A DNA stretch of 64,000 nucleotides from an uncultured Verrucomicrobia subdivision 3 bacterium (GCA_903878805.1 CAIRJF010000030.1:5873-69872), one strand, 5' to 3'. Counted from the first letter of the stretch, positions 9,401 to 64,000 are shown. The notes: a model not told the origin generated them from the sequence alone. A program made the numbers and translations.

Positions 9401-9849
9401 CCCCACGAAAGTTTTTTCTCCGGCAGCAATTCCGGCAAGAGGCCGTATTTTGACGGGCCAAAGATCGCACTGTGGACGCCCATCAGAAACACGCAGAAAA
9501 TAGTCAGGTAAAGCCGGTGGCCACCAAGACTGACGAGGGCGAGAAGCATCACGAAGATTTCAAAAGTTTTCACGCCAAGGATGACGCGGCGTTTGCTGAA
9601 GCGGTCGGCAAGAAAACCGCCGGCCATGGAAAATAAAATGAACGGCACGGCGAATAGTGAACCGACGACCGTGACGAGCGAGTCGCGTTCAGTAGCCGAG
9701 GAAATCGTTTGGGTGATGAGAAAAATGGCGAGCCACTTGAGCGCGTTGTCGCTGAACGCGCCCTGAAACTGCGTTATGATGAGCGCCCAGAAACCGCGCT
9801 GGCTGGCTGGCGGATGACTGGCGGCGGATGATGGATTTGGCTTAATCAC
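6400..9849 (-). CDS. aas: triple fusion: LplT-like MFS lysophospholipid transporter + PlsC-type acyltransferase + acyl-ACP synthetase (Aas-like)
   Basis: 1149-aa ORF with a GTG start. The N-terminal ~420 aa form about 12 TM segments (MFS). The middle carries CNHVSFADALLL (the HX4D acyltransferase motif) and FAEGQITR. The C-terminal half carries AMP-binding motifs IIFSSGSTGEPKGV, GYGCTE, TGD and GGEMV. Confidence 0.85.
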   Translation of the reverse strand: MIKPNPSSAASHPPASQRGFWALIITQFQGAFSDNALKWLAIFLITQTISSATERDSLVTVVGSLFAVPFILFSMAGGFLADRFSKRRVILGVKTFEIFVMLLALVSLGGHRLYLTIFCVFLMGVHSAIFGPSKYGLLPELLPEKKLSWGNGILEFTTFVAIIGGTVAGGIGCKIFSAQPAWSGVILIALALVGLVTGQQITKVPAPDPQKKFRANFVADLWTQIKIIRRDRPLWLALIGNTYFFFIAALIQFVIVIYAKDVMNINDPAQTSYLQAATAIGIGSGCLLAGFASAGKIETGLIPFGAIGLTISAALLGRTGISFAGVALNLSTLGFFGGFYIVPISALLQYRPAREQKGGVLAAANLISFIGIALASVVFGLLTTVLKLSPPQIFLVIAGLSLAAAIYLLALMPDALLRLVLWCITHSIYRSRIVGRDYIPEKGGALFVCNHVSFADALLLIASTDRPIRFLMFKDIYEKPWIKPFAKIWNTIPVSSEQRPRELLTALKTATDAIRNGEVVCIFAEGQITRIGQLLPFRRGIEHIMKNVDAPIIPVALDGVLGGPMSYRRGKFIHLITSRLPHPVTVSFGAPLPPTTTPFAVREAVQELQVAAWSLRREQMQPLHRNLISMARQHPFRFAFADTVSSKINFGSALAKTIFLARRLKKTWHGQRMVGIYLPPSVPGALVNYAAFFCGKVPVNLNYTLSETTLADCVKQCEIKTIISSRKFLEKIKLTPPGEIIFLEDLAAKPSLSEKIAAFLLAKFAPAILLEKIFGSARTGMDDLATIIFSSGSTGEPKGVMLSQFNLLANIQQCGEVIALDENQRLLGILPFFHSFGFTVTLCLPIVLGTGVAFYPNPLDAKGVGAMVRENKVTVLLATATFLQIYLRGVAPEDFGGLKLVVTGAEKLPEPLAAAFEARFGIRPFEGYGCTECSPAVAVNTWDYRATGFYQVGGKHGKIGQPVPGMCVRITDAENPWGGKILPPGEAGMLLVRGPNLMLGYLNQPEKTAEVLRDGWYCTGDVAMLDDDGFLQITGRLNRFSKIGGEMVPQLKIEEKLQELAGVAEQTFVVIGVPDEKKGERLVVLHKLPDAELAVVLEKFAASDLPNLWKPKADAFYRVENFPMRGTGKLDLRGVKELAQKFSATDGHR

Positions 9850-9992
9850 GTGCCCAGCCTAATCAATTGCCGAGAAAAGTGTGAATTGAAAAACTTTTGC
9901 AGACATTGTTACAACCGATGTCCGCCGAGGTCTGAAAAATCGCTGCCAAAACTGTTGCCTGACCGCAGAGGTTCGAGTATATGTAGCGCCTC

Positions 9993-14585: not shown

Positions 14586-14886
14586 ACTTTGCCGACGCCA
14601 TGCGGCGCAGATACTCGAAGGAATACAGTCCCGTGTTATGTCCGTCCGCCCACAAGGGCTGAATGGCGTAACCGCCCACGCTCATGAATTTTACCAGTTC
14701 AAACGCTTTCACAGTCAACGGCAGTGCCGGGTTTTTGTATAAGTTGCCAAGAATATCCACCTCACCCTTGCAGCCCGCGCACGGACACGCGTGGCGTAAT
14801 TTCTCCAACGCTATAAAATCCTCCGTGCCGTCGTCCCATTTCACGGCCAGTTCGTTCCCGATCAGTTGCATGTCCAGCGGTCGCAT
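14584..14886 (-). CDS. DUF971 (gamma-butyrobetaine hydroxylase N-terminal-like) protein
   Basis: 100 aa: ...LAVKWDDGTEDFIALEKLRHACPCAGCKGE...GGYAIQPLWADGHNTGLYSFEYLR is typical of DUF971. Confidence 0.8.
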   Translation of the reverse strand: MRPLDMQLIGNELAVKWDDGTEDFIALEKLRHACPCAGCKGEVDILGNLYKNPALPLTVKAFELVKFMSVGGYAIQPLWADGHNTGLYSFEYLRRMASAK

Positions 14887-15480
14887 GACGACAGGTTATT
14901 TTGCCGCAGCACACGCGTCCATACTTTACGGCGTTGACCGGAAATCGCACCGGAGAAAATCAATCTCGCTTCCACCCGGCGGACGAGATCATTTTGCGCC
15001 GCAGCCATGGGTAGGGACGACAATGCATTCCCATCGGACGCGATGATATTCCCTCGCCACGATGTCCCACAATTATCCCGCAGCGTCGAATCGCCTGCCG
15101 CCGTCGTCGCGTGACTACGCGACGAACTCCGATTGCTTGCCGATGAAATGTTTATGGAATTATTTTGTATTTATTGCCATTCGGACGAACTTTTGTGGCG
15201 ATTGGACGTCGCCGGCAGACTTCAAGGCGCCGTCCGATTGCTGCAAAACGTCGAATTATTGCATCAACACAACGCCAAGAAGCCTTAAACCGCCGTTCTC
15301 AAGCCATACTCCAACGCCGTGAGGCAATAAAACTTCATCCGCAGGCAACAAAACGTCGTGCGCAAGCCATGAAACTTTAAGCAAATGGCATTATTTTTTG
15401 ATTATGACCATTTCTATGTTAGGTTCATTGAAGATTTTCCTGATTCATCGCATGACTTTGACGGGGAGCAACGCTGTTTT

Positions 15481-16104
15481 ATGAACCGGCACAAACTAAA
15501 CTTCGGCAACCGCACCGTCACCGAGCAGCTCGCCATCTGCCGCCGCGTGGCCGACGGTGTCGCCAACGTGGCGAAGGAACATCGTCGGCATTTCACGGCG
15601 GCGAACCTCGCGGGCAAGCTGGCGGACGCCACCGCCGCCCATCAGGAAGTCGAGCGCTTGAAAGTCGCTCTCAAGTCTGCGCTCTCTCACCGCAATGAAA
15701 CGCTGCGGCTTGCGCGGAACAGTGCCAGCGCCTGCGCGAGCGGGCTGGCCGCCGTCACGAAGGGCGAACGCGCCGCGATGTTGGCGGCTGGCCTCGACGT
15801 GGTGCGCGCCAAACAGCCCGTGGGTTTGCCGTCCGCCCCGCAGCAATTGCGTGCCCTGCCCACAGACTTCGAAGGCCGCGTGCCGTTGCGGTGGCAACGC
15901 TCCGTGCGCCGGTGTGTTTTCCAAGTGGAAACGACTACCGATGCCGCCGCGCGCACCGGCTGGAAACGGGTATTGTCATCCACCCGGCAAAGTGGCGAAG
16001 TGAGCGGACTGGTCAGCGGCAAGAAACATTGGTTCCGCGTGTGCGCCGTGAACGCGCACGGCACCGGCCCATGGAGCCAGCCCGTCAGCGCGTGGGTGAA
16101 GTGA
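15481..16104 (+). CDS. hypothetical protein: helical N-terminal half plus C-terminal fibronectin type III domain; no signal peptide
   Basis: The ORF track frame is 15385..16104. The AT-rich first 32 codons look non-coding, so the start is placed at MNRHKLNFGN (15481). The fn3-like C-terminus is PSAPQQLRALPTDFEGRVPLRWQRSVRRCVFQVETTTD...GLVSGKKHWFRVCAVNAHGTGPWSQPVSAWV. Confidence 0.6.
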   Translation: MNRHKLNFGNRTVTEQLAICRRVADGVANVAKEHRRHFTAANLAGKLADATAAHQEVERLKVALKSALSHRNETLRLARNSASACASGLAAVTKGERAAMLAAGLDVVRAKQPVGLPSAPQQLRALPTDFEGRVPLRWQRSVRRCVFQVETTTDAAARTGWKRVLSSTRQSGEVSGLVSGKKHWFRVCAVNAHGTGPWSQPVSAWVK

Positions 16105-53513: not shown

Positions 53514-53527
53514 ACACCGGGCAATTT

Positions 53528-53899
53528 ATGTCACAGCCGCTCGCGATTTTTTTCTACGAACGTCTCATGCCCGGTAGCCAGTTGGTAAACCGGCTGCAGG
53601 ATTTAAATTATCGCGTTCTCGCACTTGATAATGCCGCGCGGCTCGCTGCCACGGTTCAGCGAGAAAAGCCGCTTTTGGTTTTCGCCGATCTGGATGCCAA
53701 GGGCGATGTCACTGCGGCTATAAAAAAGATTAAAGCCGATGAAGCAACCAGCCATGTGCCCATCGTTGGATTTGCGCCGGATAATGCTCCCGACTTACTA
53801 ACTGCCGGACAGGAATCTGGTGCCAATCTGGCCGTGACTGAAAGTGCGCTCACCGGTCACCTGTCGCAAATTTTGGAGCAGGCGCTCCATGTGGACTAG
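53528..53899 (+). CDS. stand-alone receiver-like (possibly pseudo-receiver) domain protein
   Basis: Start at MSQPLAIFFYE (53528), 14 nt after the gltD stop. The fold pattern is CheY-like (..LLVFADLDAKGD.., ..VPIVGFAP..), but the N-terminal acidic pair is not evident. Confidence 0.55.
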   Translation: MSQPLAIFFYERLMPGSQLVNRLQDLNYRVLALDNAARLAATVQREKPLLVFADLDAKGDVTAAIKKIKADEATSHVPIVGFAPDNAPDLLTAGQESGANLAVTESALTGHLSQILEQALHVD

Positions 53900-54313: not shown

Positions 54314-55477
54314 ATGTTGGAATTGTCGCCCGCTCCCGTCACTAGCCTCTACGTTCATGTCCCGTTCTGCGCGCAGAAATGCGAATACTGCGCGTTCTAT
54401 TCCGAAGCTTCTTCCGGCGAACTCATCAACCGCTACGTCAACGCGCTCGTCCGCGAACTGGAAATCGTCGCGGCCGATTTGAAACCGAAAACCATTTTTT
54501 TTGGCGGCGGCACTCCATCGCTTTTAAATTTGCGCCAGTGGGAAACCATTTTGCGCGCCATGGAAAAATTTAATCTCCTCGGCGCGGAAGAGTTTACCAT
54601 CGAGAGCAATCCCGCCACCGTCTCGGCAGATAAATCCAAATTGCTCCGCGATTTCGGCGTGAACCGCATCTCGATGGGCGTGCAATCGCTTGATGAAAAA
54701 TTGCTCGACCGACTCGGCCGCATTCATTCGCGCGAGCAGGTTTTTAAATCCTTCGACACTCTGCGCGCCGCCGGCTTTGAAAATATTAATCTCGATTTGA
54801 TGTTCGCCATTCCCACGCAGACGATGGAAATCTGGCGCGCGACTTTGAACGAGACGATGGCGATGCAAAGCGAACATCTTTCCAGCTACGAAGTGATTTA
54901 CGAAGACGACACGCCGCTCTACGAACAGCTCAAAGCCGGCGAATTTTCCGTCGACGAAGAACTCGGCTGCGCGATGTATGAAGAACTGATTTCAGCTGCA
55001 ACCAACGGTGGTTTTCACCAATACGAAATCGCCAACTTTGCGCGCGGCGAATTAAACAGAGAAAAAATTCCTGCGCGTGTCTGCCAACACAACGTCAATT
55101 ACTGGCGCGGTGGAAATTTCTATGGACTCGGTCCCAGCGCAACCGGCTATGTGCGCGGTGTGCGGACAAAAAATTGGTCGAACACGCCGTTGTATTGCGA
55201 CCAGTTGGAAAAAGGCAAACGCGCCATCGAATCTAGCGAGGAACTGCCGCCCCTGCGCCGCGCCGGCGAAATCGCTGCGTTCGGTTTACGCATGAACGCC
55301 GGCTGGCCGTTTGCCGATTTCAAAAGCACTACAGACTTCGATTTGCGAAACGAATGGGATTGCGAAATGAACCAATTGGCCGAACGCGGTTGGGCCATGC
55401 GGGATGCTGAAAAATTCCATCTCACGCATCAGGGATTACGTTTCGCTGATGCAGCGGCGGAAATGTTTCTGCGGTGA
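54314..55477 (+). CDS. hemW: radical SAM heme chaperone HemW (HemN-like, oxygen-independent coproporphyrinogen oxidase family)
   Basis: 387 aa with LYVHVPFCAQKCEYCAFY (CX3CX2C) and FFGGGTPS. Confidence 0.88.
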   Translation: MLELSPAPVTSLYVHVPFCAQKCEYCAFYSEASSGELINRYVNALVRELEIVAADLKPKTIFFGGGTPSLLNLRQWETILRAMEKFNLLGAEEFTIESNPATVSADKSKLLRDFGVNRISMGVQSLDEKLLDRLGRIHSREQVFKSFDTLRAAGFENINLDLMFAIPTQTMEIWRATLNETMAMQSEHLSSYEVIYEDDTPLYEQLKAGEFSVDEELGCAMYEELISAATNGGFHQYEIANFARGELNREKIPARVCQHNVNYWRGGNFYGLGPSATGYVRGVRTKNWSNTPLYCDQLEKGKRAIESSEELPPLRRAGEIAAFGLRMNAGWPFADFKSTTDFDLRNEWDCEMNQLAERGWAMRDAEKFHLTHQGLRFADAAAEMFLR

Positions 55478-55479
55478 AA

Positions 55480-57015
55480 TCAGCCTAGCGGCAGCCGAAC
55501 GGTAAAAGTTGTTCCCGCATGTTCTTCACTCGCCACTTCAATCGTGCCGCCGTGCGCCTCGACAATGGCTTTTGTGATAGCGAGGCCAAGCCCGGAATTT
55601 CCTGCACCCGTGCGCGACGAATCGGCGCGGAAAAATCTGCCAAAAACTTGCGGCAGATTTTCGGCAGCAATCCCCTGCCCCGTGTCCGCCACGGTTAAAA
55701 CGGCCAATCCATTTTGCGATTCCAGCGTCACGCGCACTTTGCCGTCTGGATTGTTATATTGAATTGCGTTGGTCAGTAGATTCGTGACGACTTGCGCGAG
55801 CCTCTCGGAATCGCCAATGATTTCAATGGGTTCAGCTTCAACCGAAATCTTCACGCCGCGATCGTCCGCGAGCGGCAGGACGAGTTCGGCGCAATCGGAA
55901 ATGGTTTTTGAAAAATCAAATTGCTGGTGTTTTAAAATTTCTTGGCCGGCGTCGAAGCGCGCGAGCGCGAGCAGCGACTCGATCAATTTCCGCATCCGCT
56001 GCGCCGCGCGCTGGCAGGCTTCGACAGTTTGTTTGTAACTGACAGCATCGCGCTCACGGTTCAGCGCGGTTTGCGTTTGCGTGAGGATGACTGAAACGGG
56101 CGTGCGCAGTTCGTGCGCGGCATCGGACGCAAATTGTTTCTGCTGCGTGAATGCCGTTTCCAACCGTGCGAAGGTGGAATTTAAAACCGCTGCGAGCTGG
56201 CCGAGTTCGCTTTCAGTTTCCGCCGTGTTGATGCGCTGCGACAAATCGCCAGCGGAAATTTTCACTGCTGTCGCGCTGATTTCCGAGACCGGACTGAGAG
56301 CGCGCCCAACGAACCACCAACCGCCCGCAAGTCCGACAATCAGCACCGTGCCACCGACCAGCAGCAGGCTCAAGGCCGTTCGCCGCAGGTCTTTCAGCTC
56401 CGGCGCAACGGAGCAACCGACAGTGACAATCTCCTCGGAGGGCAACTGGCTGGCAGCTTCGCGATACGTGTCGAAGCTAACCAGTTTCACGGGCAGTCCG
56501 CTCTTGCCAACTGTGTCGGCGACTTGATTAACCGGTTGAAAATAGTTGTCGGAATTATGCAGACGATTATCCGGCTGGTTCGTGGTGGCGGCGATTTGGT
56601 CGCCGTCGCGATTCACGATGCGATAATAGTAATGGTGCGGATCGCCGGCCTCGAAGAAATGTATATCCTGCGCGGGCAAACTGAATTCAGGAAAGCGCCG
56701 GCCGTTGCGATCAGGAAAATTCTCGCCGGGAAAATTTTGCTCCGGCGGCAGGCCGTCCGGCGGCGGACCGTCAAAATTTTGTCCGCGCTGAAACTGGCTT
56801 GGTGGCGGACGGTTGCCATTCAACCCGCGCGGCGGCGGACGATGCAGGGCGTTCGCAAGCACGCCAATGCGACGGTGCAATTCCTGATCCACCTGCCGAA
56901 ATTGGCGGTTGCGATCCAGTTGATACGCGGTGATGCCGAAGCCCGCGAGCACGACGACAAGAATCAAACCATACCAGATTTGCAGCCGCCATTTGATGGA
57001 TTTGAAAATTTTCAT
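55480..57015 (-). CDS. sensor histidine kinase (2 TM, Pro/Gly-rich periplasmic domain, HAMP, HisKA, HATPase)
   Basis: The start ATG at 57015 overlaps the RR stop (ATGA). It has the H-box FASDAAHELRTPVS, the N-box LLTNAIQYN, G1 DTGQGI and G2 GNSGLGLA. The periplasmic segment is rich in PPP/GNRPPP/DGPPPDG. Confidence 0.88.
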   Translation of the reverse strand: MKIFKSIKWRLQIWYGLILVVVLAGFGITAYQLDRNRQFRQVDQELHRRIGVLANALHRPPPRGLNGNRPPPSQFQRGQNFDGPPPDGLPPEQNFPGENFPDRNGRRFPEFSLPAQDIHFFEAGDPHHYYYRIVNRDGDQIAATTNQPDNRLHNSDNYFQPVNQVADTVGKSGLPVKLVSFDTYREAASQLPSEEIVTVGCSVAPELKDLRRTALSLLLVGGTVLIVGLAGGWWFVGRALSPVSEISATAVKISAGDLSQRINTAETESELGQLAAVLNSTFARLETAFTQQKQFASDAAHELRTPVSVILTQTQTALNRERDAVSYKQTVEACQRAAQRMRKLIESLLALARFDAGQEILKHQQFDFSKTISDCAELVLPLADDRGVKISVEAEPIEIIGDSERLAQVVTNLLTNAIQYNNPDGKVRVTLESQNGLAVLTVADTGQGIAAENLPQVFGRFFRADSSRTGAGNSGLGLAITKAIVEAHGGTIEVASEEHAGTTFTVRLPLG

Positions 57016-57662
57016 TCGATGCAATAGCCGTGACCGCGCCGGGTGGCGATGAATTCCGCACCGAGTTTTTTGCGCACGTTGGAAACGTGAACGTCCAAAA
57101 GATTTGAAAGAGAACTTTCGTTCTCGTCAAAAAGGTGTTCGTAAAGTTGTGTGCGCGTGACGACTTCGCCGCGGTGCAGCGCGAGAAATTCCACGAGCGC
57201 GTATTCGCGTGCGGTGATTTCCACTGCTTTATCTTTGAAGAAAACATTACGCGCGGCGGTGTCAATTTTCACGTCGCCTATTTCAATGACATTCGTGGTC
57301 TTGTTCGCGCTGCGGCGGATGACGGCGCGGAGACGCGCAAAAACTTCTTCGAGGTCGAACGGCTTGACGACGTAATCATCTGCGCCGTTGTCGAGGCCTT
57401 TCACGCGGTCGCGCGTCTGGTCACGCGCGGTAAGCATGAGCACGGGCGTTTTTTTAGTTTTGCGTAGGCGTTTTAAAATTTCCCATCCGTCAATTCCGGG
57501 CAACATCACGTCTAAAATTATTGCGTCGTAGTCCGTGCCTTCGGCGTTGAATAGGCCGTCGTCGCCGTTGTCGGCGGTGTCCACGGCATAGCCTTCCTCG
57601 CGCAACGCCTGCGCGAGACTCGCGAGCAAATCGGGTTCGTCTTCAACGATGAGAATTCTCAT
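57012..57662 (-). CDS. OmpR/PhoB-family response regulator
   Basis: MRILIVEDEPDL..., DAIILDVMLPGIDG, LMLTARD, a winged-helix C-terminus (LTAREYALVEFLALHRGEVVTR) and ..RRGHGYCI. Confidence 0.9.
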   Translation of the reverse strand: MRILIVEDEPDLLASLAQALREEGYAVDTADNGDDGLFNAEGTDYDAIILDVMLPGIDGWEILKRLRKTKKTPVLMLTARDQTRDRVKGLDNGADDYVVKPFDLEEVFARLRAVIRRSANKTTNVIEIGDVKIDTAARNVFFKDKAVEITAREYALVEFLALHRGEVVTRTQLYEHLFDENESSLSNLLDVHVSNVRKKLGAEFIATRRGHGYCIE

Positions 57663-57774
57663 GTGCGTGTGCGCGGCCATTCATAACATGACCGCGCAAG
57701 GTCGTCACGTTCGCAAAATCAACCTTAAGGCCAGATGAAGAAAATAATTGCACAGCGCTGCGCAAAAAATTGCT

Positions 57775-57811
57775 TGGCTTCATTCTGGCTTAAGGTTCAT
57801 TCGCGTAAAGT
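57775..57811 (+). promoter_or_regulatory. candidate response-regulator box + -10 element immediately upstream of the YHYH operon start codon
   Basis: tGGCTTcattctGGCTTAAGGTTcattcgcgTAAAGTcgcgacATG. The GGCTT direct repeat has 11-bp periodicity. The element is identical in sequence and spacing to the one at 62647-62683. The -10-like hexamer lies 6 nt before the ATG, implying a leaderless transcript. Confidence 0.5.
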
Positions 57812-57817
57812 CGCGAC

Positions 57818-59593
57818 ATGAAAACTCAAATTCACACCCAACGGAAATTGATCTTCACTGGCGCAATGATCGGACTTTTTTCTATGGTCGCTTTAATCGC
57901 AAAAGCCGATCCGCAGATCACTTCATGGCTCACAACTTACGCGGGACAATACGCGCGGATTTACACGAACGACGTTTCGCGCACGAACGGCTTTTCGCAG
58001 ACGACTTGGACAAACGGCACGACCATCCAGACCTTACCGACGTATTGCGGTGTGCAGGAAATTTATTCGTCTAGCAACTGGGTTTATATCCGCAGCACCG
58101 GTCTAGGCAGTTTTGTGATGGGGCCGTGGTATTTGAACACGAATCACACGCTGGCATTTCCAAACTGGCCGGTGAATCAAAAAACTTTGTATCGCATTCC
58201 ACGCAGCCCGACCGTGCCAACAACAAAAACAGCTAATGGCGGTGGGCCGATTGGGTATTTTGTGGATGGCGCGGCGATGTTCAATAGTTGGGACGCCTAC
58301 ACTTACAGCACGGTTTCCAACACCGACGCGCAAAATATAACCGGCTATTGGAATCGCGATGCGTATGTGAATGAAGGCGCGAGCTTCGATCCTAACAACG
58401 CGCATCAGGCCGGCGGCCAATATCATTATCACGCCAATCCACCCGCGTTGCGCTACCAACTCGGCGACCACGTGGATTTCAATACGCTCACAAAAATCTA
58501 CGCCGAAGACACAAACACGCCGACGAAGCACTCGCCAATTCTCGCGTGGACCGCGGATGGTTTTCCGGTTTATGGACCTTACGGTTACAGCATTTCCAAC
58601 AACGCCAGCAGCGGCATCCGCCGGATGATTTCCGGCTACGTTCTGCGCAACGGCCAATACGGCACGAGCAATCTCACGGCAAACGGACGCACGACCATTC
58701 CGCAATGGGCCGTGCGACTGTTCAATGTCAGCTCAAACCAGACTGGGCCGAACGTCAGCACGAGCTATCCGCTCGGACGCTATATGGAAGACAATGATTT
58801 TCTGGGCGACCACGGCTACGCGTCCGGGACCAACACTTACGACTTGGACGAATACAACGGCCGCTGGTGCGTCACGCCGGAATATCCTAGCGGCACTTAC
58901 GCCTACTTCGTCAGCATCAGCAGCAATGGCACGCCAACGTTTCCCTACAACATTGGACGCGGCTATTACGGCAGTCCAACGGGTGGCACGGTGAGCGCAA
59001 TTTCAGTTACGGAAAACGCCGTAACCAATTTTCTCGGCAACACCAATCTGACTTCGATCATAAATTCCCCAACTGTGAAAAACGGAACCGTCACGCTCAC
59101 CTGGAGTGCGCTTGAAGGCGGCAGTTATGAGGTGGACGCGACCACAAATCTGGGAAGTTCGTCCGCATGGACCACGCTCGGCACCGGCGTTTTACCGAAC
59201 CAAATTGTCGGCGGCTACACCAATGTCACTTCGCTCAGCCAGCGTTTTTATCGTGTCGGACGTGACTCCGTGGCGACGTTTGACAGCCCCGGCACGACAC
59301 TTTTCGCGACCAATTCCGTCGCCCCCGGCGGGTCGGCGTATCGCGGCCAGACCGTGTTGCTGACCATCACGCTGCCGAGCACGCCGCCGAACCCGCCGGC
59401 AGGCGCGCCCATCACGAGTGTGACCATCGGCAGCATCACGGCCTTGAGCGCGACCTGCACGGCATCGGGCACGGTATCGGCACTGTTCACGATTCCGTCA
59501 AGTTATACGCCGACCGGTTCACAAACTGTAACGGTGACTTTCCAAAGTCCGGCACCGACTTTCACGCTTTCGAGTTATTTCACCATCAACTAA
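57818..59593 (+). CDS. secreted YHYH-motif protein with C-terminal beta-sandwich extension
   Basis: 591 aa. The signal peptide ends ..LIAKADPQ. The motif is AHQAGGQYHYHANPPALRYQLGDH. Conserved segments are HSPILAWTADGFPVYGPYGYS and LDEYNGRWCVTPEYPSGTYAYF. The C-terminal ~190 aa are fn3/Ig-like (GTVTLTWSALEGGSYEVDATTNLGSSSAWTTL...RFYRV). Confidence 0.8.
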   Translation: MKTQIHTQRKLIFTGAMIGLFSMVALIAKADPQITSWLTTYAGQYARIYTNDVSRTNGFSQTTWTNGTTIQTLPTYCGVQEIYSSSNWVYIRSTGLGSFVMGPWYLNTNHTLAFPNWPVNQKTLYRIPRSPTVPTTKTANGGGPIGYFVDGAAMFNSWDAYTYSTVSNTDAQNITGYWNRDAYVNEGASFDPNNAHQAGGQYHYHANPPALRYQLGDHVDFNTLTKIYAEDTNTPTKHSPILAWTADGFPVYGPYGYSISNNASSGIRRMISGYVLRNGQYGTSNLTANGRTTIPQWAVRLFNVSSNQTGPNVSTSYPLGRYMEDNDFLGDHGYASGTNTYDLDEYNGRWCVTPEYPSGTYAYFVSISSNGTPTFPYNIGRGYYGSPTGGTVSAISVTENAVTNFLGNTNLTSIINSPTVKNGTVTLTWSALEGGSYEVDATTNLGSSSAWTTLGTGVLPNQIVGGYTNVTSLSQRFYRVGRDSVATFDSPGTTLFATNSVAPGGSAYRGQTVLLTITLPSTPPNPPAGAPITSVTIGSITALSATCTASGTVSALFTIPSSYTPTGSQTVTVTFQSPAPTFTLSSYFTIN

Positions 59594-59606
59594 ATTTAAA
59601 GTCCGC

Positions 59607-60878
59607 ATGAAAACGATTTTATCCGCTGCCATTTTCTTAGTGCTGACCGCACCGGTTTTTGCCGACCCGCAAATCACGTCGTGGTTCACGCTCGATTCCG
59701 GTAAGTTCGCGCAAATCTACCGCACAGTCGCCGAGAAAAATTCCGGCCAGACCGAAACGACTTGGAGTAACGGACGCAACGTGCAATTGCAACCGGCCTA
59801 TTGCGGCGTGCAGCAAATTTTGTCGTCATCCAACTGGGTTTATGTCCGCAGCACCGGTCTAGGCAGCCAGATCATGGGGCCGTGGCAAAACGGCTGGTTT
59901 CCCAATCTGCCGACCGACCAGCATTTTATTTTTGCCATTCCGCGTCATCCAAAAGTTCAGACCGGAAATAATTTTAATCGCCTCGGCGAAATCGGAATGT
60001 TCGTGGACGGTGTGCGAATGTTTGATGCTAGCGATGCGTGGTCTTACTCCAGCGCGGCCGGCCGCGATTTCGGTCCCGGTGGCGGCGGTGGCAACGGCGA
60101 CCGCATCTGGAACCGCGACGCGTTTCCAAATGAGAGCCGGACTTTCGACGCGTCTTACGCGCACCAACAAAATCGCGGCACTTATCATTATCATGTCGAA
60201 CCCATCGCGCTGCGCTACGAACTCGGCGACCACGTTGATTTTGATTCCACGACAAAAACTTACCACGAGAGCAGCAACGCGCCGCAAAAACACTCGCCTA
60301 TTCTCGGCTGGATGCAGGATGGCTATCCGCTTTACGGGCCTTACGGTTATTCCAATCCGACCAATCCAGCGAGCGGGCTGCGCCGGATGGTTTCCGGTTT
60401 CGCTTTGCGCAACGGCGAAAACGGCACAGACAATCTCGCGCAAAACGGTCGCGCCACCCTGCCCGCCTGGGCAATCCGCGAACAACCTTTCAACGCCACG
60501 CAAACCGGCCCGGCGGTGAATCAAAAACGTCCGTTGGGATATTACATCGAGGACTACGCCTATCTCGGTGACTGTGGAAAAACTTTAGGCAAAGATTTTG
60601 ACCTCGACGAACTGAATGGCCGCTGGTGCGTCACGCCGGAATTTCCGCAAGGAACTTATGCCTATTTCACCACGATTGATGCAAGCGGTCTGCCGGTCTA
60701 TCCTTACAATATGGGCCGCCGCTACCATGGTTATCCGATTGGCCGCCTCGTCATGGGCGTTCACGAGCCGGTGACGACAAACTTTAGCACGCATCCGGTT
60801 CCAATCCCAAAAATGGCCACTGCCAATACCAAGACTCTGACGTGGAATACCGGCAACGGCGGTTACGATTCAAAATGA
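59607..60878 (+). CDS. secreted YHYH-motif protein (shorter paralogue)
   Basis: 423 aa. The signal peptide ends ..APVFADPQ. The motif is AHQQNRGTYHYHVEPIALRYELGDH. It shares HSPILGWMQDGYPLYGPYGYS and LDELNGRWCVTPEFPQGTYAYF, and is collinear with the 57818..59593 product. Confidence 0.8.
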   Translation: MKTILSAAIFLVLTAPVFADPQITSWFTLDSGKFAQIYRTVAEKNSGQTETTWSNGRNVQLQPAYCGVQQILSSSNWVYVRSTGLGSQIMGPWQNGWFPNLPTDQHFIFAIPRHPKVQTGNNFNRLGEIGMFVDGVRMFDASDAWSYSSAAGRDFGPGGGGGNGDRIWNRDAFPNESRTFDASYAHQQNRGTYHYHVEPIALRYELGDHVDFDSTTKTYHESSNAPQKHSPILGWMQDGYPLYGPYGYSNPTNPASGLRRMVSGFALRNGENGTDNLAQNGRATLPAWAIREQPFNATQTGPAVNQKRPLGYYIEDYAYLGDCGKTLGKDFDLDELNGRWCVTPEFPQGTYAYFTTIDASGLPVYPYNMGRRYHGYPIGRLVMGVHEPVTTNFSTHPVPIPKMATANTKTLTWNTGNGGYDSK

Positions 60879-62632
60879 AACTGGCGCGAAATATTATTTT
60901 TTGCCTGACAATTTATTACGGATTTAATTTGGCCGACGCTGCGACGCTGCAAATTCAAATCACGTCAAAAGTTTCCGGCGAAAATTTGCAACCCGCGTCG
61001 TTTCGCTACCAAACTTCAGCGGGCGAAACATTTTCCATTACCCGCGTCAGTTATCTTGTCAGCGATTTTGCACTGCAACGCAACGACGGCTCGTGGCTGG
61101 AATTCTCCAATTCCGTCGCGTGGCTGGACTTTGACGCCAACCGTAATTCCATCTGGCTCGAAAAAATTCCGGCGGGCGAATTTTGTTCCGTGCGCTTTCT
61201 CGTCGGCTTGAACACAAATCTAAATCACGCGGACATTTCACAATTTCCCGCCGGTCATCCGCTCAATCCAAACTTGAACGGACTGCACTGGAGTTGGCAG
61301 GGCGGATTTGTTTTTCTCGCGTTGGAAGGGTTGTGGCGCAACGCGAACGGCGAAATGGACGGCTGGGCGTATCATCTCGCGCGCGATACGAACGCCACGC
61401 GCATCACGCTCGCTGCGCCGCTGCAAATCACCAATGAAACCAAGGTGGAAATGGATTTTGATTTGGCGACTTTGCTGAACGCGCCGCGTCCGCTTTCGTT
61501 TGGCAAAGACGGTCCCTCCACGCACTCGTGCGATGGCGATCCAATTTCTGCCGCGCTCGTCGTGAATCTTGTGGGTGCGTTTCGAATCCACAAAATCACG
61601 GCGCTCACCGACGCCGAAATAGCCGTGGCACATCCAAAGCCGCTTTATTTGCCGGAAAAATTTACACCGTATCAATTCCAGATGAGCGCGACGTTTCCGA
61701 TTCCCGACTTGCCGCGCGATAATCCGCTCACAGTCGAACGCGTCGCGCTGGGCAAAACTTTGTTTTTCGACAAACAACTTTCGGTCAACAGCGCGCAGTC
61801 TTGCGCGGACTGCCATGTGCCGGAAAAGGCGTTTACGGACGGACGCCGCACAGCGCGCGGCGCAGAAGGCGAATTTGGAACGCGCAACGCCATGCCGCTG
61901 TTCAACCTCGCGTGGAAAAAAGAATTTTTTTGGGATGGCCGTGCGAAAAGTTTGCGGGAACAAGTTTTGCAGCCGATTCAAAACCCGATTGAGATGCACG
62001 AAACACTGACGAATATTTGCGCCAAACTGCGCGCGACGGACAAAATTGATTACGCAAATTTGTTTACCGCCGCGTTTGGTTCGCCGGAAATTACGGCGGA
62101 AAAGATTTCGCTCGCGCTGGAGAATTATCTGCTCACGCTGACATCTTTCAACGCGAAGTTCGACCGTGTTTTGCGCGGCGAAGAAAAATTTACAGCGGAA
62201 GAACAGCGCGGGTTTGAATTATTTTCCACGGAATACGATCCGCGGCGCGGGCAGTTTGGCGCGGACTGTTTCCACTGCCATGGCGGGCCGCTTTTTCAGA
62301 GCCAGAGTTTTGCAAACAACGGTTCGGACGGTGCGTTCACGGATATTGGCCGCGAGAAAATTACGGGCAAGGCGAGCGACCGTGGAAAATTTTCCGTGCC
62401 GTCGTTGCGCAATGTAGAACTGACCGCGCCGTATATGCACGACGGTCGTTTTCGCACGCTGGAAGATGTGATCCGCCATTATTCCACGGGCATTCCGCGC
62501 AGTGCGACGCTGGATCCGAATCTTGCCAAACATCCTGACGGCGGCGTGCCGCTCAGCGATACGGATAAGCGCGCGCTGATGGCTTTTCTGAAAACTTTGA
62601 CGGACGCGCAATTTGCTTTGACAGAAAAATAA
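60875..62632 (+). CDS. fusion of an MbnP-like domain and an MbnH/MauG-like diheme cytochrome c peroxidase
   Basis: The start MKLARNIIF (60875) overlaps the upstream stop (ATGA). The N-terminal ~270 aa resemble MbnP (ATLQIQITSKVSGENL...FSITRVSYLVSDFALQRNDGSW...GLHWSWQGGFVFLALEG). The C-terminal half is CCP/MauG-like with two heme motifs, CADCH (61802-61816) and CFHCH (62267-62281), plus PYMHDG. Confidence 0.8.
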   Translation: MKLARNIIFCLTIYYGFNLADAATLQIQITSKVSGENLQPASFRYQTSAGETFSITRVSYLVSDFALQRNDGSWLEFSNSVAWLDFDANRNSIWLEKIPAGEFCSVRFLVGLNTNLNHADISQFPAGHPLNPNLNGLHWSWQGGFVFLALEGLWRNANGEMDGWAYHLARDTNATRITLAAPLQITNETKVEMDFDLATLLNAPRPLSFGKDGPSTHSCDGDPISAALVVNLVGAFRIHKITALTDAEIAVAHPKPLYLPEKFTPYQFQMSATFPIPDLPRDNPLTVERVALGKTLFFDKQLSVNSAQSCADCHVPEKAFTDGRRTARGAEGEFGTRNAMPLFNLAWKKEFFWDGRAKSLREQVLQPIQNPIEMHETLTNICAKLRATDKIDYANLFTAAFGSPEITAEKISLALENYLLTLTSFNAKFDRVLRGEEKFTAEEQRGFELFSTEYDPRRGQFGADCFHCHGGPLFQSQSFANNGSDGAFTDIGREKITGKASDRGKFSVPSLRNVELTAPYMHDGRFRTLEDVIRHYSTGIPRSATLDPNLAKHPDGGVPLSDTDKRALMAFLKTLTDAQFALTEK

Positions 62633-62646
62633 TTTCAAAATCTTTT

Positions 62647-62683
62647 GGGCTTAACGCGGGCTTAAGGTTGTTTCAGGTAGATT
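62647..62683 (+). promoter_or_regulatory. second copy of the candidate response-regulator box + -10 element
   Basis: gGGCTTaacgcgGGCTTAAGGTTgtttcaggTAGATTggtcacATG, with the same architecture and spacing as 57775-57820. Confidence 0.5.
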
Positions 62684-62689
62684 GGTCAC

Positions 62690-62782
62690 ATGAAAAGTGA
62701 AGCCGGACGCACCACCAAACGAATCAATATCACCAGCGAGGAACTGGTGACGTTCGCGGTGCGGGTGGTCTTCAAAAAATAA
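62690..62782 (+). CDS. possible leaderless 30-codon mini-ORF (MKSEAGRTTKRINITSEELVTFAVRVVFKK)
   Basis: Its ATG sits in exactly the position that the YHYH start codon occupies relative to the repeated box/-10 element. Its stop is 10 nt before the receiver gene ATG, with GGAGG in between. No homology recognised. Confidence 0.25.
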   Translation: MKSEAGRTTKRINITSEELVTFAVRVVFKK

Positions 62783-62792
62783 CGGAGGAACT

Positions 62793-63206
62793 ATGAAACA
62801 CCTCTTGGCTACAACCGAAACCAAACATTGGATGCTGGTGGACGATAACGCCAGCGTTCTGGAACTGGTCTCCGCGCTGGTGGAAAATTTGACGGACGCG
62901 CCCATTGAACGGTTTAATTCGTCGCAAGCGGCGCTCGCCGCATTTGCAGCGGCACCGGAGAAATACGAAGTCGTCATCACGGATTTTGAGATGCCCGGAA
63001 TGGACGGCGTGGAACTTTGCCGCCGGATGTTGGCGCTTGCTCCAAAGCAAAAAATTATTTTGGCGACGGGCAGCGAATTCTTCACGAAGGCGGCGGCGCA
63101 GCACGCGGGTTTCAGCGGGTTGCTGAACAAGCCGTTTCCGATTGAGGCGCTGAGCACGACGCTGTCGGAAGCGGGAGTCGAAATGGGATTGTTGACGCAC
63201 GCTTAA
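62793..63206 (+). CDS. stand-alone CheY-like receiver domain protein
   Basis: 137 aa: WMLVDDNASVLELV.., VVITDFEMPGMDGVELCRRM, IILATG and LLNKPF (the D, D, T, K set is present). The SD GGAGG lies upstream. Confidence 0.85.
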   Translation: MKHLLATTETKHWMLVDDNASVLELVSALVENLTDAPIERFNSSQAALAAFAAAPEKYEVVITDFEMPGMDGVELCRRMLALAPKQKIILATGSEFFTKAAAQHAGFSGLLNKPFPIEALSTTLSEAGVEMGLLTHA

Positions 63207-63246
63207 AAATTTGCACCTGAACAAAAAAAACAAAATAAAACTAACT

Positions 63247-63693
63247 ATGAAAACAAAAATGACAATGGCAATGGTGGCCGCCATCGGCGCTTTGGCGCTG
63301 GCGGTCAACGCACAGGACAACAATCAATCGCCGGGCGGGCCGCCGCCATCTGATTCGCAATCGGCCACGCAGCACGCTGGCCCTCGCGGTGGTCGCGGCG
63401 GTTTCCATCTGTTGCCGCCGCCGCTGGTGCAACAGCTCAAGCTCACGGACGATCAGAAAACGCAGATCGCCGCGCTCGAAGCGGACACGAAGGCCAAGCT
63501 GGAAAAAATTCTGACGGCGGATCAACTGGCGCAGTTGAAAAACTTCCGTCCGCCGATGCGCCAAGGCGGTCAGGGTGGTCAAGGACAGGGACGTGGTCCT
63601 GGCGGTGATGAAAACGGCATGCCGCCCGGCCCGCCGCCCGGTGAAGATGGCGGCAACACGCCTCCGTCCGGTCCGCCTCTGGGTGGCAACTGA
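63247..63693 (+). CDS. secreted CpxP/Spy-like (LTxxQ-type) periplasmic protein with Pro/Gly-rich flanks
   Basis: Signal peptide MKTKMTMAMVAAIGALALAVNAQ. The central helix pair is LKLTDDQKTQIAALEADTKAKLEKILTADQLAQLKNF. The flanks are GGPPPSD... and ...GQGGQGQGRGPGGDENGMPPGPPPGEDGGNTPPSGPPLGGN. Confidence 0.65.
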   Translation: MKTKMTMAMVAAIGALALAVNAQDNNQSPGGPPPSDSQSATQHAGPRGGRGGFHLLPPPLVQQLKLTDDQKTQIAALEADTKAKLEKILTADQLAQLKNFRPPMRQGGQGGQGQGRGPGGDENGMPPGPPPGEDGGNTPPSGPPLGGN

Positions 63694-63720
63694 AGAACTT
63701 CCGTTCGTGTGAACGGCAAG

Positions 63721-63765
63721 GCGGCGGGCTGACGAAAACTCCGGGTGTGAACGTCAGTCCGCCGC
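63721..63765. terminator. strong hairpin between convergent genes (possible bidirectional terminator)
   Basis: gcggcgggctgacg-N17-cgtcagtccgccgc forms a 14-bp stem with one G-T pair. There is no clean U-tract on either side. Confidence 0.45.
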
Positions 63766-63814
63766 TCCTTTGTTGAAAACGATTTGGCGGTGAAAGAAAT
63801 TTCGCCGCTGATTT

Positions 63815-64000
63815 TTATTTTGCCAGCAAGCGACGAACAGACAGCAATCCCGCAAGAATCGCGATGCCGCCGCAGATTAAATACGGCAGCGCGCGGGTGG
63901 AATCGTTCAGGCCGTAAAGGGTCGCGGCAAAAATCGGGCCGACGATGCGCGCGAGTGCGCCTGCGCTTTGGGCAACGCCGATGGTTGCGCCTTGCTCGGT
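63815..64000 (-). CDS. C-terminal end of an MFS-type transporter (gene continues beyond window end)
   Basis: Own translation of the minus strand gives TEQGATIGVAQSAGALARIVGPIFAATLYGLNDSTRALPYLICGGIAILAGLLSVRRLLAK*. The G..QS.G.LARI.GP motif is the MFS loop motif between TM helices 8 and 9. Confidence 0.6.
   Translation of the reverse strand, partial: TEQGATIGVAQSAGALARIVGPIFAATLYGLNDSTRALPYLICGGIAILAGLLSVRRLLAK

Follow-up and report, generated by a model that had tools for sequence, protein, structure and literature searches.

A conserved YHYH and MbnP–MbnH fusion operon with its two-component regulator and regulator box in Verrucomicrobiota

We analysed a cluster of genes for exported proteins at positions 55,480–63,693 of a 64,000-nucleotide stretch of DNA (hereafter the window) from an uncultured Verrucomicrobia subdivision 3 bacterium (GCA_903878805.1, CAIRJF010000030.1:5873-69872). 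The cluster consists of an OmpR-type response regulator and a sensor histidine kinase, divergent from an operon that encodes two YHYH-motif proteins and one polypeptide joining an MbnP-like domain to a diheme MbnH/MauG-like domain, followed by a second, smaller unit. The core of this system, YHYH and a fused MbnP–MbnH controlled by a two-component system of the PmrA/BqsR type that has a defined box, is firmly supported; equally firm is the conservation of the regulon in Verrucomicrobiota, where alone it has so far been seen. The host is a soil or freshwater Verrucomicrobium, and the nearest relatives of the locus belong to uncultured Verrucomicrobia subdivision 3 (Limisphaerales/Pedosphaerales).

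Conservation and control of the operon

Conservation was surveyed in one genome per GTDB species, scanned with an alignment of long-type YHYH proteins. The scan found 315 stretches encoding a relative, and the best 80 of the 315, all but a few of them from Verrucomicrobiota, were analysed (L-numbered loci below); 68 species-level loci had enough downstream DNA to be informative. In 50 of these 68, MbnP and MbnH come immediately after a long-type YHYH gene, and in 49 of the 50 the two halves lie in one stop-free reading frame, so the fusion is the rule. A divergent OmpR-type regulator is found within 1.2 kb of the YHYH gene in 28/64 loci. The pair is kept in loci that lack the gltBD/cold-shock/HemW flank, in several genomic contexts, and where the MbnP-like domain is only 30–40% identical to that of the window; two look-ups seeded with fusion homologues recovered the same YHYH–fusion gene order. 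The neighbourhood of YHYH, MbnP–MbnH and two-component genes, whose absence from related genomes had been set beforehand as a possible refutation of the original prediction, is conserved across Verrucomicrobiota.

When all open reading frames (ORFs) around the YHYH loci were clustered without preset families, only three families recurred: YHYH (65 loci), the fusion (49) and two-component/CheY proteins (40). The next families, comprising the housekeeping flank, a major facilitator superfamily (MFS) transporter, EF-hand proteins, M11-type peptidases and β-propellers of the pyrroloquinoline quinone (PQQ) type, each appear in at most 8 loci. YHYH loci without a fusion have unrelated neighbours, and some YHYH genes lie beside M11-type peptidases with PKD domains. 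Most species carry a single YHYH1-type gene, the YHYH2 type being a duplication inside the window's subclade. The fusion family itself is large, with thousands of members at 90% clustering and ~30–40 full-length representatives among the top matches at the 50% level; in its long multidomain peroxidase relatives, no fused YHYH was found.

Variations on this arrangement were seen in individual species. A third, canonical short YHYH gene follows the fusion in some of them (L028 13840–14913; L045 12614–13627; L029 about 14785–15492); these encode proteins of 337–357 amino acids (aa) that score 229–246 bits with Pfam and have no insert, and the L045 copy has its own regulator box. One locus (L077 1624–6477) encodes a 1617-aa protein with two YHYH and several immunoglobulin-type domains, with the same box upstream. 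In five species a PQQ/BamB-type β-propeller gene comes directly after the fusion (L021 9225–10349 and four other loci).

The two units of the cluster share one upstream motif, as had been predicted, and it turned out to be a single box conserved across species. Exact copies of GGCTTAAGGTT lie at 57787 and 62659, each time 31 nt before an ATG, and an inverted copy with one mismatch lies at 57721; 64 kb contain 4 matches at no more than one mismatch, against 0.56 expected. Cross-species alignment defines the full element as CTT[CA]A[CT]-N5-CTTAAGG(T/G), 8 nt, a -10-like TA(A/G)A(G/T)T, 6 nt and ATGAAA. Its half-sites, at a spacing of 11 bp, overlap the -35 position, and judged by its sequence the site is of the class of OmpR/PhoB-family activators. 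The three copies in the window stand before YHYH1, before the mini-ORF of the second unit, and inverted, facing the regulator gene; this last copy has the same position and orientation in orthologous loci and would give autoregulation. This arrangement, in which the ATG lies 43 nt from the start of the segment scanned, recurs at ~50 sites across species (L002–L080). The box is also a direct repeat of the PmrA/BqsR type: the PmrA/BasR box is YTTAAK-N5-YTTAAK, and an exact TTAAG-N6-TTAAG is present in L044 and L057. In Pseudomonas aeruginosa, the BqsR box is TTAAG(N)6TTAAG and overlaps the -35 (PMC4358008, PMC13522522).

The start codon follows the -10-like TAnAnT hexamer by only 6–7 nt (57806–57820; 62678–62692; ~50 sites), which leaves no room for a ribosome-binding site, so the mRNAs of the YHYH operon and of the mini-ORF/CheY unit are probably leaderless. 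For the mRNA of the regulator itself, a short leader would be expected. Shine–Dalgarno sequences are weak for most genes of the window.

A metagenome collection was then scanned for box, -10-like element and ATG as a single pattern. The scan returned at least 120 stretches; among the matches listed, 122 sites were classified by their first downstream gene. The most frequent is YHYH, often then the fusion (38/122), followed by small exported EF-hand proteins (26) and by CheY-like receivers, mostly with an EF-hand or LTxxQ protein behind them (20). Less common are Lcl_C/DUF1566 secreted proteins (7), diheme peroxidases (6), LTxxQ or Gly/Pro-rich proteins (5), β-propeller fragments (4), GspD secretins of type II secretion (2), LuxR-type regulators (2), one unassigned family (1) and other or unknown genes (4); at the other 7 sites the contig is too short. 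These targets therefore define the regulon as a set of exported proteins. YHYH genes that have no adjacent fusion or regulator still bear the box (L011, L012, L020–L026) and are therefore members of the same regulon. At least one of the six box-driven diheme peroxidases stands alone, without an MbnP domain; in some metagenome contigs a 430-aa CCP_MauG protein of this kind (L094 866–2158) is a direct box target, and its first ~120 residues match no Pfam family. Other box targets in metagenomes are short ORFs resembling N- or C-terminal β-propeller fragments. Directly upstream of one stand-alone YHYH gene with a normal box lies a tandem 10-bp array of half-site-like repeats, GATTCAAGGT (L025 about 9833–9890, minus strand).

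Proteins of the cluster

The fusion protein: The N-terminal half of the fusion matches the Pfam family MbnP (PF20243) over residues 24–203 with 114.5 bits, against a cut-off of 27 bits, and the C-terminal half matches CCP_MauG (PF03150) with 186.2 bits and carries two CxxCH motifs (CADCH at residue 310, CFHCH at residue 465). The joint MbnP and diheme MauG/MbnH-like polypeptide of the original prediction is thus real, and so is its N-terminal match to MbnP, the lack of which would have counted against the prediction. The best solved relative of the diheme half is chain 6E1C (E 4e-47), which we take to be MbnH of Methylosinus trichosporium OB3b; the Nitrosomonas diheme peroxidase 1IQC is also matched (7e-40). 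Tyr536, in the sequence VIRHY, aligns with Tyr294 of MauG and with VIDIY of 6E1C, that is, at the position of the axial ligand of the second heme. Canonical diheme peroxidases carry Met there, although the printed alignment with 1IQC ends two residues earlier. The match to 6E1C, the two CxxCH motifs and Tyr536 together speak for chemistry of the MauG type over simple reduction of peroxide.

In the MbnP-like half, 13 homologues that are 30–74% identical keep invariant the WxW motif (W139, W141), H167, H217-S218 and D222, and HPLNP is nearly invariant. A single-sequence search of this half against the PDB gave no match; a profile of the domain gave one, to MbnP itself (7L6G), which is weak (E 0.82) and centred on the WxW motif, so that W139-S-W141 of the window aligns with WNW of 7L6G.

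The YHYH proteins: Both proteins exceed the cut-off of the Pfam family YHYH (PF14240, 25 bits), with the motif at residue 202 of YHYH1 and residue 193 of YHYH2, and both contain an insert of ~60 aa relative to the Pfam model. YHYH1 has in addition a C-terminal Ig-like extension of ~200 aa, where a weak Big_3_5 match is found. An AlphaFold2 prediction of YHYH2 made from 10 close homologues reached a predicted local distance difference test score (pLDDT) of 31; when ~100 canonical YHYH sequences were added (148-sequence alignment), the model became confident, with a pLDDT of 83.3 and a predicted template modelling score (pTM) of 0.85. A sequence search of YHYH2 against the PDB gave no match, and Foldseek found no relative of the model among 350,542 PDB chains (best E 0.87; TM-scores ≤0.10 on the model). 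Against viral models, the only matches were YHYH proteins of cyanophages and giant viruses. Invariant across the family are W168, D181, H186, Y193-H194-Y195-H196, W235, D238, D316, D334 and N337, and a DxDExNG loop is conserved. A three-His-plus-Asp metal site has been predicted for YHYH, and the YHYH domains of phage tails have been predicted to be metal-dependent hydrolases (PMC7824862); the invariant H186, H194, H196, D181 and D238 agree with that site.

Kinase and regulator: The kinase has two transmembrane segments and a periplasmic domain, followed by HAMP, HisKA and HATPase_c. Its periplasmic domain holds a Pro/Gly/Asn-rich low-complexity insert at residues of about 60–150 (56560–56830), which is found in 22/22 orthologues, is not conserved in sequence and resembles in composition the Gly/Pro-rich tails of the small regulated periplasmic proteins. 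Models of heavy-metal subfamilies score highest for both proteins yet below their cut-offs: the kinase scores 285.6 bits with the sensor model TIGR01386 (cut-off 292.55), from residue 194 on and so over the transmitter part only, and the regulator scores 227.6 with TIGR01387 (cut-off 279.2), 214 with PmrA and 174 bits with a CusR-type model. The best characterised solved relatives of the regulator are DrrD and BasR/PmrA (172 bits for BasR/PmrA). A CopR/CusR assignment was rejected, the box and the nearest regulators being PmrA/BqsR-like. Since orthologues align from MRILIVEDE on, the regulator probably starts at ATG 57662.

Layout: The features of the cluster are collected in Table 1. The reading frames, their coordinates and start contexts agree with those first proposed, including the 13-nt gap between YHYH1 and YHYH2 and the ATGA overlaps of kinase with regulator and of YHYH2 with the fusion gene. 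Pfam domains likewise uphold the OmpR-type regulator and histidine kinase divergent from genes for exported proteins, and the two YHYH proteins are indeed paralogues (50% identical). Signal peptides of the Sec type can be read on all three products of the YHYH operon. Rfam found no RNA family across 55000–64000. In the conserved gltBD/cold-shock/HemW flank, a small conserved ORF between gltD and the cold-shock gene (53527–53899, 123 aa) has a receiver-like sequence, and its orthologue in L048 gives a weak Response_reg match (20.9 bits).

Table 1. Features of the cluster, in window coordinates
Feature	Position	Strand	Remarks
Sensor histidine kinase, 511 aa	55480..57015	-	Pfam HAMP, HisKA, HATPase_c
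OmpR/PhoB-family response regulator	57012..57680	-	Pfam Response_reg + Trans_reg_C
Regulator box facing regulator gene, CTTCATCTGGCCTTAAGGTT on minus strand	57721..57740	-	Inverted repeat; same place and orientation in orthologous loci
YHYH operon promoter	57778..57820	+	Box CTTCATTCTGGCTTAAGGTT 57778-57797; -10-like TAAAGT 57806-57811; ATG 57818
YHYH1, exported, 591 aa	57818..59593	+	Pfam YHYH 131.5 bits; YHYH motif 58421-58432
YHYH2, exported paralogue, 423 aa	59607..60878	+	Pfam YHYH 145.7 bits; YHYH motif 60183-60194
MbnP–MbnH fusion, exported, 585 aa	60875..62632	+	Pfam MbnP + CCP_MauG
Fusion, MbnP-like domain	about 60944-61483	+	WSW at 61289-61297
Fusion, diheme domain	about 61670-62632	+	CADCH 61802-61816; CFHCH 62267-62281; Tyr536 at 62480
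Second promoter	62650..62692	+	Box CTTAACGCGGGCTTAAGGTT 62650-62669; -10-like TAGATT 62678-62683; ATG 62690
Mini-ORF, 30 aa, MKSEAGRTTKRINITSEELVTFAVRVVFKK	62690..62782	+	Begins at the putative leaderless ATG
CheY-like single-domain receiver, 137 aa	62793..63206	+	Pfam Response_reg 63.3 bits
Small exported Gly/Pro-rich protein, 148 aa, two LTxxQ ("Spy-like")	63247..63693	+	ORF open from TTG 63211
Intrinsic-terminator-like hairpin, 12 pairs and T-run, closing the cluster	63784..63811	+	Hairpin scan

The second unit: The mini-ORF belongs to a family of 30–40 codons with a basic N-terminus and the motif ..RI..(L/V)...(V/T)(A/T)FAVR(V/I/L).., seen in L003, L004, L006 and L007 and in metagenome loci L131, L136, L156, L157, L161, L168 and L190. 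It always precedes the CheY-like gene; in other species, which lack it, that ATG is the start of the CheY-like gene. Because its codons vary at third positions through synonymous changes, the mini-ORF appears to be translated. The CheY-like receiver retains the acidic pocket (DD), the phospho-acceptor Asp and the conserved Thr and Lys. For the last gene, ATG 63247 is the most likely start and yields a protein of 148 aa. Mini-ORF and receiver were as predicted, but the CpxP/Spy assignment of this last protein is weak, and a firm one was rejected: two LTxxQ motifs are visible by eye, and the scores stay below every model threshold (Pfam LTXXQ, PF07813, 14.9 bits with E 0.045, against 24.3; NCBIfam Spy 26.5 against 174). 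At the same position other species have EF-hand proteins, which share the layout of the window's protein: a signal peptide, AQDNN, a Gly/Pro-rich segment, a helical core and a Gly/Pro-rich tail. The LTxxQ motifs may be what is left of EF-hand exit helices (KLTQDEL); a pairwise comparison with one such EF-hand protein (L045 14101–14550) gives E 0.056, not significant alone.

A proposed mechanism and its competitors

The model that we favour, at a probability of roughly 45% for the whole, is one of signal-dependent activation, export and self-modification. The membrane kinase would sense a periplasmic cue, most likely a metal cation, and phosphorylate the PmrA/BqsR-type regulator, a dimer of which would bind CTT[CA]Ay-N5-CTTAAGG over the -35 of three promoters: its own, that of the YHYH operon and that of the mini-ORF/CheY/small-protein unit. 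The two output promoters would make leaderless mRNAs. After export, the diheme half of the fusion would use H2O2 to oxidise W139 of its own MbnP-like half to kynurenine; W139 is the first Trp of the WxW motif, the residue that is reportedly converted to kynurenine in the original study of MbnP/MbnH. The kynurenine would create a high-affinity metal site, for Cu(I) by analogy with MbnP, and the co-translated YHYH protein, with its invariant cluster of three His and Asp, would act as the metal-binding partner of the fusion, capturing the ion or handing it over. The CheY-like receiver would serve as a phosphate sink, and the small Gly/Pro-rich protein as an accessory or buffering factor in the periplasm, with feedback on the kinase, the two tuning the response.

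Several observations weigh against this model, and in particular against copper. On NCBIfam models the fusion scores 38.5 bits with TIGR04052 (MbnP_like_WxW; cut-off 140), 234.8 with MbnH TIGR04039 (cut-off 362.85), which is nonetheless its best-scoring model, and 186.6 with MauG (cut-off 443.85), and the alignment of 13 MbnP-like homologues contains neither a four-Cys motif nor an invariant Met. Because both halves lie under the equivalog cut-offs and these residues are absent, we would file the fusion as a divergent subfamily and not as an orthologue of MbnP/MbnH. The neighbour clustering revealed no recurrent copper chaperone, TonB-dependent receptor, P-type ATPase or efflux pump, and the box regulon, among the matches listed, contains no transporter and no copper chaperone but does extend to EF-hand, Lcl_C, β-propeller, secretin and stand-alone peroxidase genes. 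About a quarter of long-type YHYH genes have no adjacent fusion, and canonical short YHYH genes elsewhere are not adjacent to MbnPH; a link to MbnH is therefore not general in the YHYH family. Among 22 orthologues, the periplasmic part of the kinase shows no conserved His, Cys, Met or ExxE. To judge from sequence comparison, moreover, regulator and box are PmrA/BasR/BqsR-like and not Cop/Cus-like. Since they are so, and since the box regulon is without transporters, a link to copper would come only by way of homology to MbnP/MbnH, through the WxW motif and the MauG-type Tyr. The original prediction of a metal acquisition or detoxification module thus stands as far as a self-contained, signal-controlled set of exported proteins is concerned, whereas its metal (copper) role is suggested by homology only.

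The strongest rival, which we consider somewhat unlikely, is a regulon for cations or envelope stress, comparable to BqsRS/CarRS or PmrAB. In it the kinase would sense Fe2+, Ca2+ or general cationic stress, the outputs would buffer or exploit that cation, and the metal at the MbnP-like site might not be copper. The box fits TTAAG(N)6TTAAG and, like that of BqsR, lies over the -35 (PMC4358008); Fe2+ and Ca2+ are the signals of BqsRS/CarRS, which controls CarO and CarP (PMC13522522). Of the characterised proteins with solved structures, BasR/PmrA come nearest to the regulator; EF-hand proteins rank second among the box targets, with 26/122 among the matches listed, and occur in most CheY-led units; PQQ-type β-propellers recur, and YHYH has its DxDExNG loop. 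However, the window kinase lacks the ExxE or RExxE of PmrB/BqsS, which the 22 orthologues do not conserve either, the likeness of the box would reflect the DNA-binding lineage of the regulator and not the signal, and MbnP, the sole experimentally characterised relative of the core protein, binds Cu(I).

It is unlikely, too, that the cluster encodes a secreted enzyme system, in which YHYH would be a Zn-dependent hydrolase that the fusion matures oxidatively, or with which it acts jointly on an extracellular polymer or the cell wall. Such a system has no known substrate, the WxW motif of the MbnP-like domain already offers one in cis, and most YHYH genes of other lineages have no MauG-like neighbour. 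It would nevertheless fit the prediction of YHYH as a metal-dependent hydrolase (PMC7824862), the restriction of its structural matches to phage and giant-virus YHYH, the other secreted proteins and the type II secretion secretin in the regulon, the M11-type peptidases with PKD domains beside some YHYH genes, and the modification of partner proteins by MauG-type enzymes.

Simple periplasmic peroxide defence, with the diheme domain an ordinary cytochrome c peroxidase and the rest accessory, seems to us more doubtful still: the similarity to Nitrosomonas 1IQC (7e-40) and the stand-alone CCP_MauG box target of some contigs speak for it, but Tyr and not Met occupies the axial position, as in MauG and 6E1C, the 6E1C chain is the best match, and the fusion to the WxW domain is kept in 49/50 loci. 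Inherited synteny without functional coupling is very unlikely, for although many loci share the gltBD/cold-shock/HemW flank, the YHYH–fusion pair outlives both that flank and a fall to 30–40% identity in the MbnP domain, stop and start codons overlap or nearly so, and each unit has the same box ahead of it, as do YHYH genes elsewhere in the genome.

Relation to known systems and significance

To bind Cu(I), MbnP requires a kynurenine that MbnH forms in it (PMC11951088). The MbnP/MbnH "metallo-mystery pair" of M. trichosporium OB3b (7L6G, 6E1C) resembles the window system in combining a WxW domain with a Tyr-ligated, MauG-like diheme enzyme, the two being co-encoded and exported. The window system differs in that both form one polypeptide, score below the equivalog cut-offs and are without the four-Cys motif or conserved Met; no methanobactin genes, TonB-dependent transporter or copper chaperones lie nearby, and the constant partner is YHYH. 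In gammaproteobacterial methanotrophs, MopE/MCA2590 and CorA/CorB pair a surface or secreted kynurenine copper protein with a diheme peroxidase, under copper regulation (PMC3621798, PMC11951088). They share with the window system the pairing of an exported protein with a diheme peroxidase, a likeness by description; no sequence relationship to MopE or CorA was seen, no comparison aimed at one having been made, their protein folds differ, and the copper regulation is theirs. The MauG/pre-methylamine dehydrogenase system is similar in its His–Tyr heme ligation, Tyr536 being the counterpart of MauG Tyr294, and MauG oxidises Trp residues of its partner protein over a distance; unlike in that system, the window has no mau genes, and tryptophan tryptophylquinone (TTQ) is not the expected product.

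On the side of regulation, BqsRS/CarRS and PmrAB/BasRS are autoregulated, bind a direct repeat over the -35 and respond to periplasmic cations (PMC4358008, PMC13522522). The window system has in common with BqsRS/CarRS of P. aeruginosa and PmrAB/BasRS of enterobacteria an OmpR-family regulator and a TTAAG-N6-TTAAG-type repeat overlapping the -35; it departs from them in a kinase sensor that lacks ExxE/RExxE and has a Pro/Gly-rich insert, and in an entirely different regulon. The small protein of the second unit is like CpxP, Spy and ZraP in being small, exported and helical, with two LTxxQ motifs and the same two-component control, and kinase feedback is possible; in contrast to them it scores below threshold, has Gly/Pro-rich termini and has EF-hand proteins as its positional orthologues.

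Current annotation recognises the components as "MbnP family protein" and "YHYH protein". The literature searched contained no connection between YHYH and MbnP, and we found neither the fusion nor its constant association with YHYH described, nor the regulator box with its regulon. By sequence comparison, then, the system would be a divergent variant of the MbnPH pair with a new partner family, and that partner appears to have a fold without a solved relative.

MbnP/MbnH is, to our knowledge, widespread and characterised in only one organism; the natural fusion would be a convenient single-chain system for the Trp-to-kynurenine reaction and its metal site. Little is known to us of two-component regulation or leaderless translation in Verrucomicrobiota, for both of which, the latter being probable here, the fixed geometry of box, -10 element and ATG provides a compact model. 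Of the YHYH family, which occurs in bacteria, diatoms, cyanophage baseplates and giant viruses, we know of no solved structure and no tested function. The operon is a first functional lead for this family, and its partner and regulator box make the function directly testable. One reading that reaches further, and that we regard as improbable, is that YHYH constitutes a structurally new class of extracytoplasmic metalloproteins whose function in Verrucomicrobia depends on a MauG-type enzyme: the fusion would load it with metal captured at the kynurenine site, or would build a cofactor from Trp or Tyr at the invariant W/Y-H-Y-H cluster. If true, this would be a new metal-trafficking or redox-enzyme system, and would give a function to a family that spans bacteria, algae, phage tails and giant viruses.

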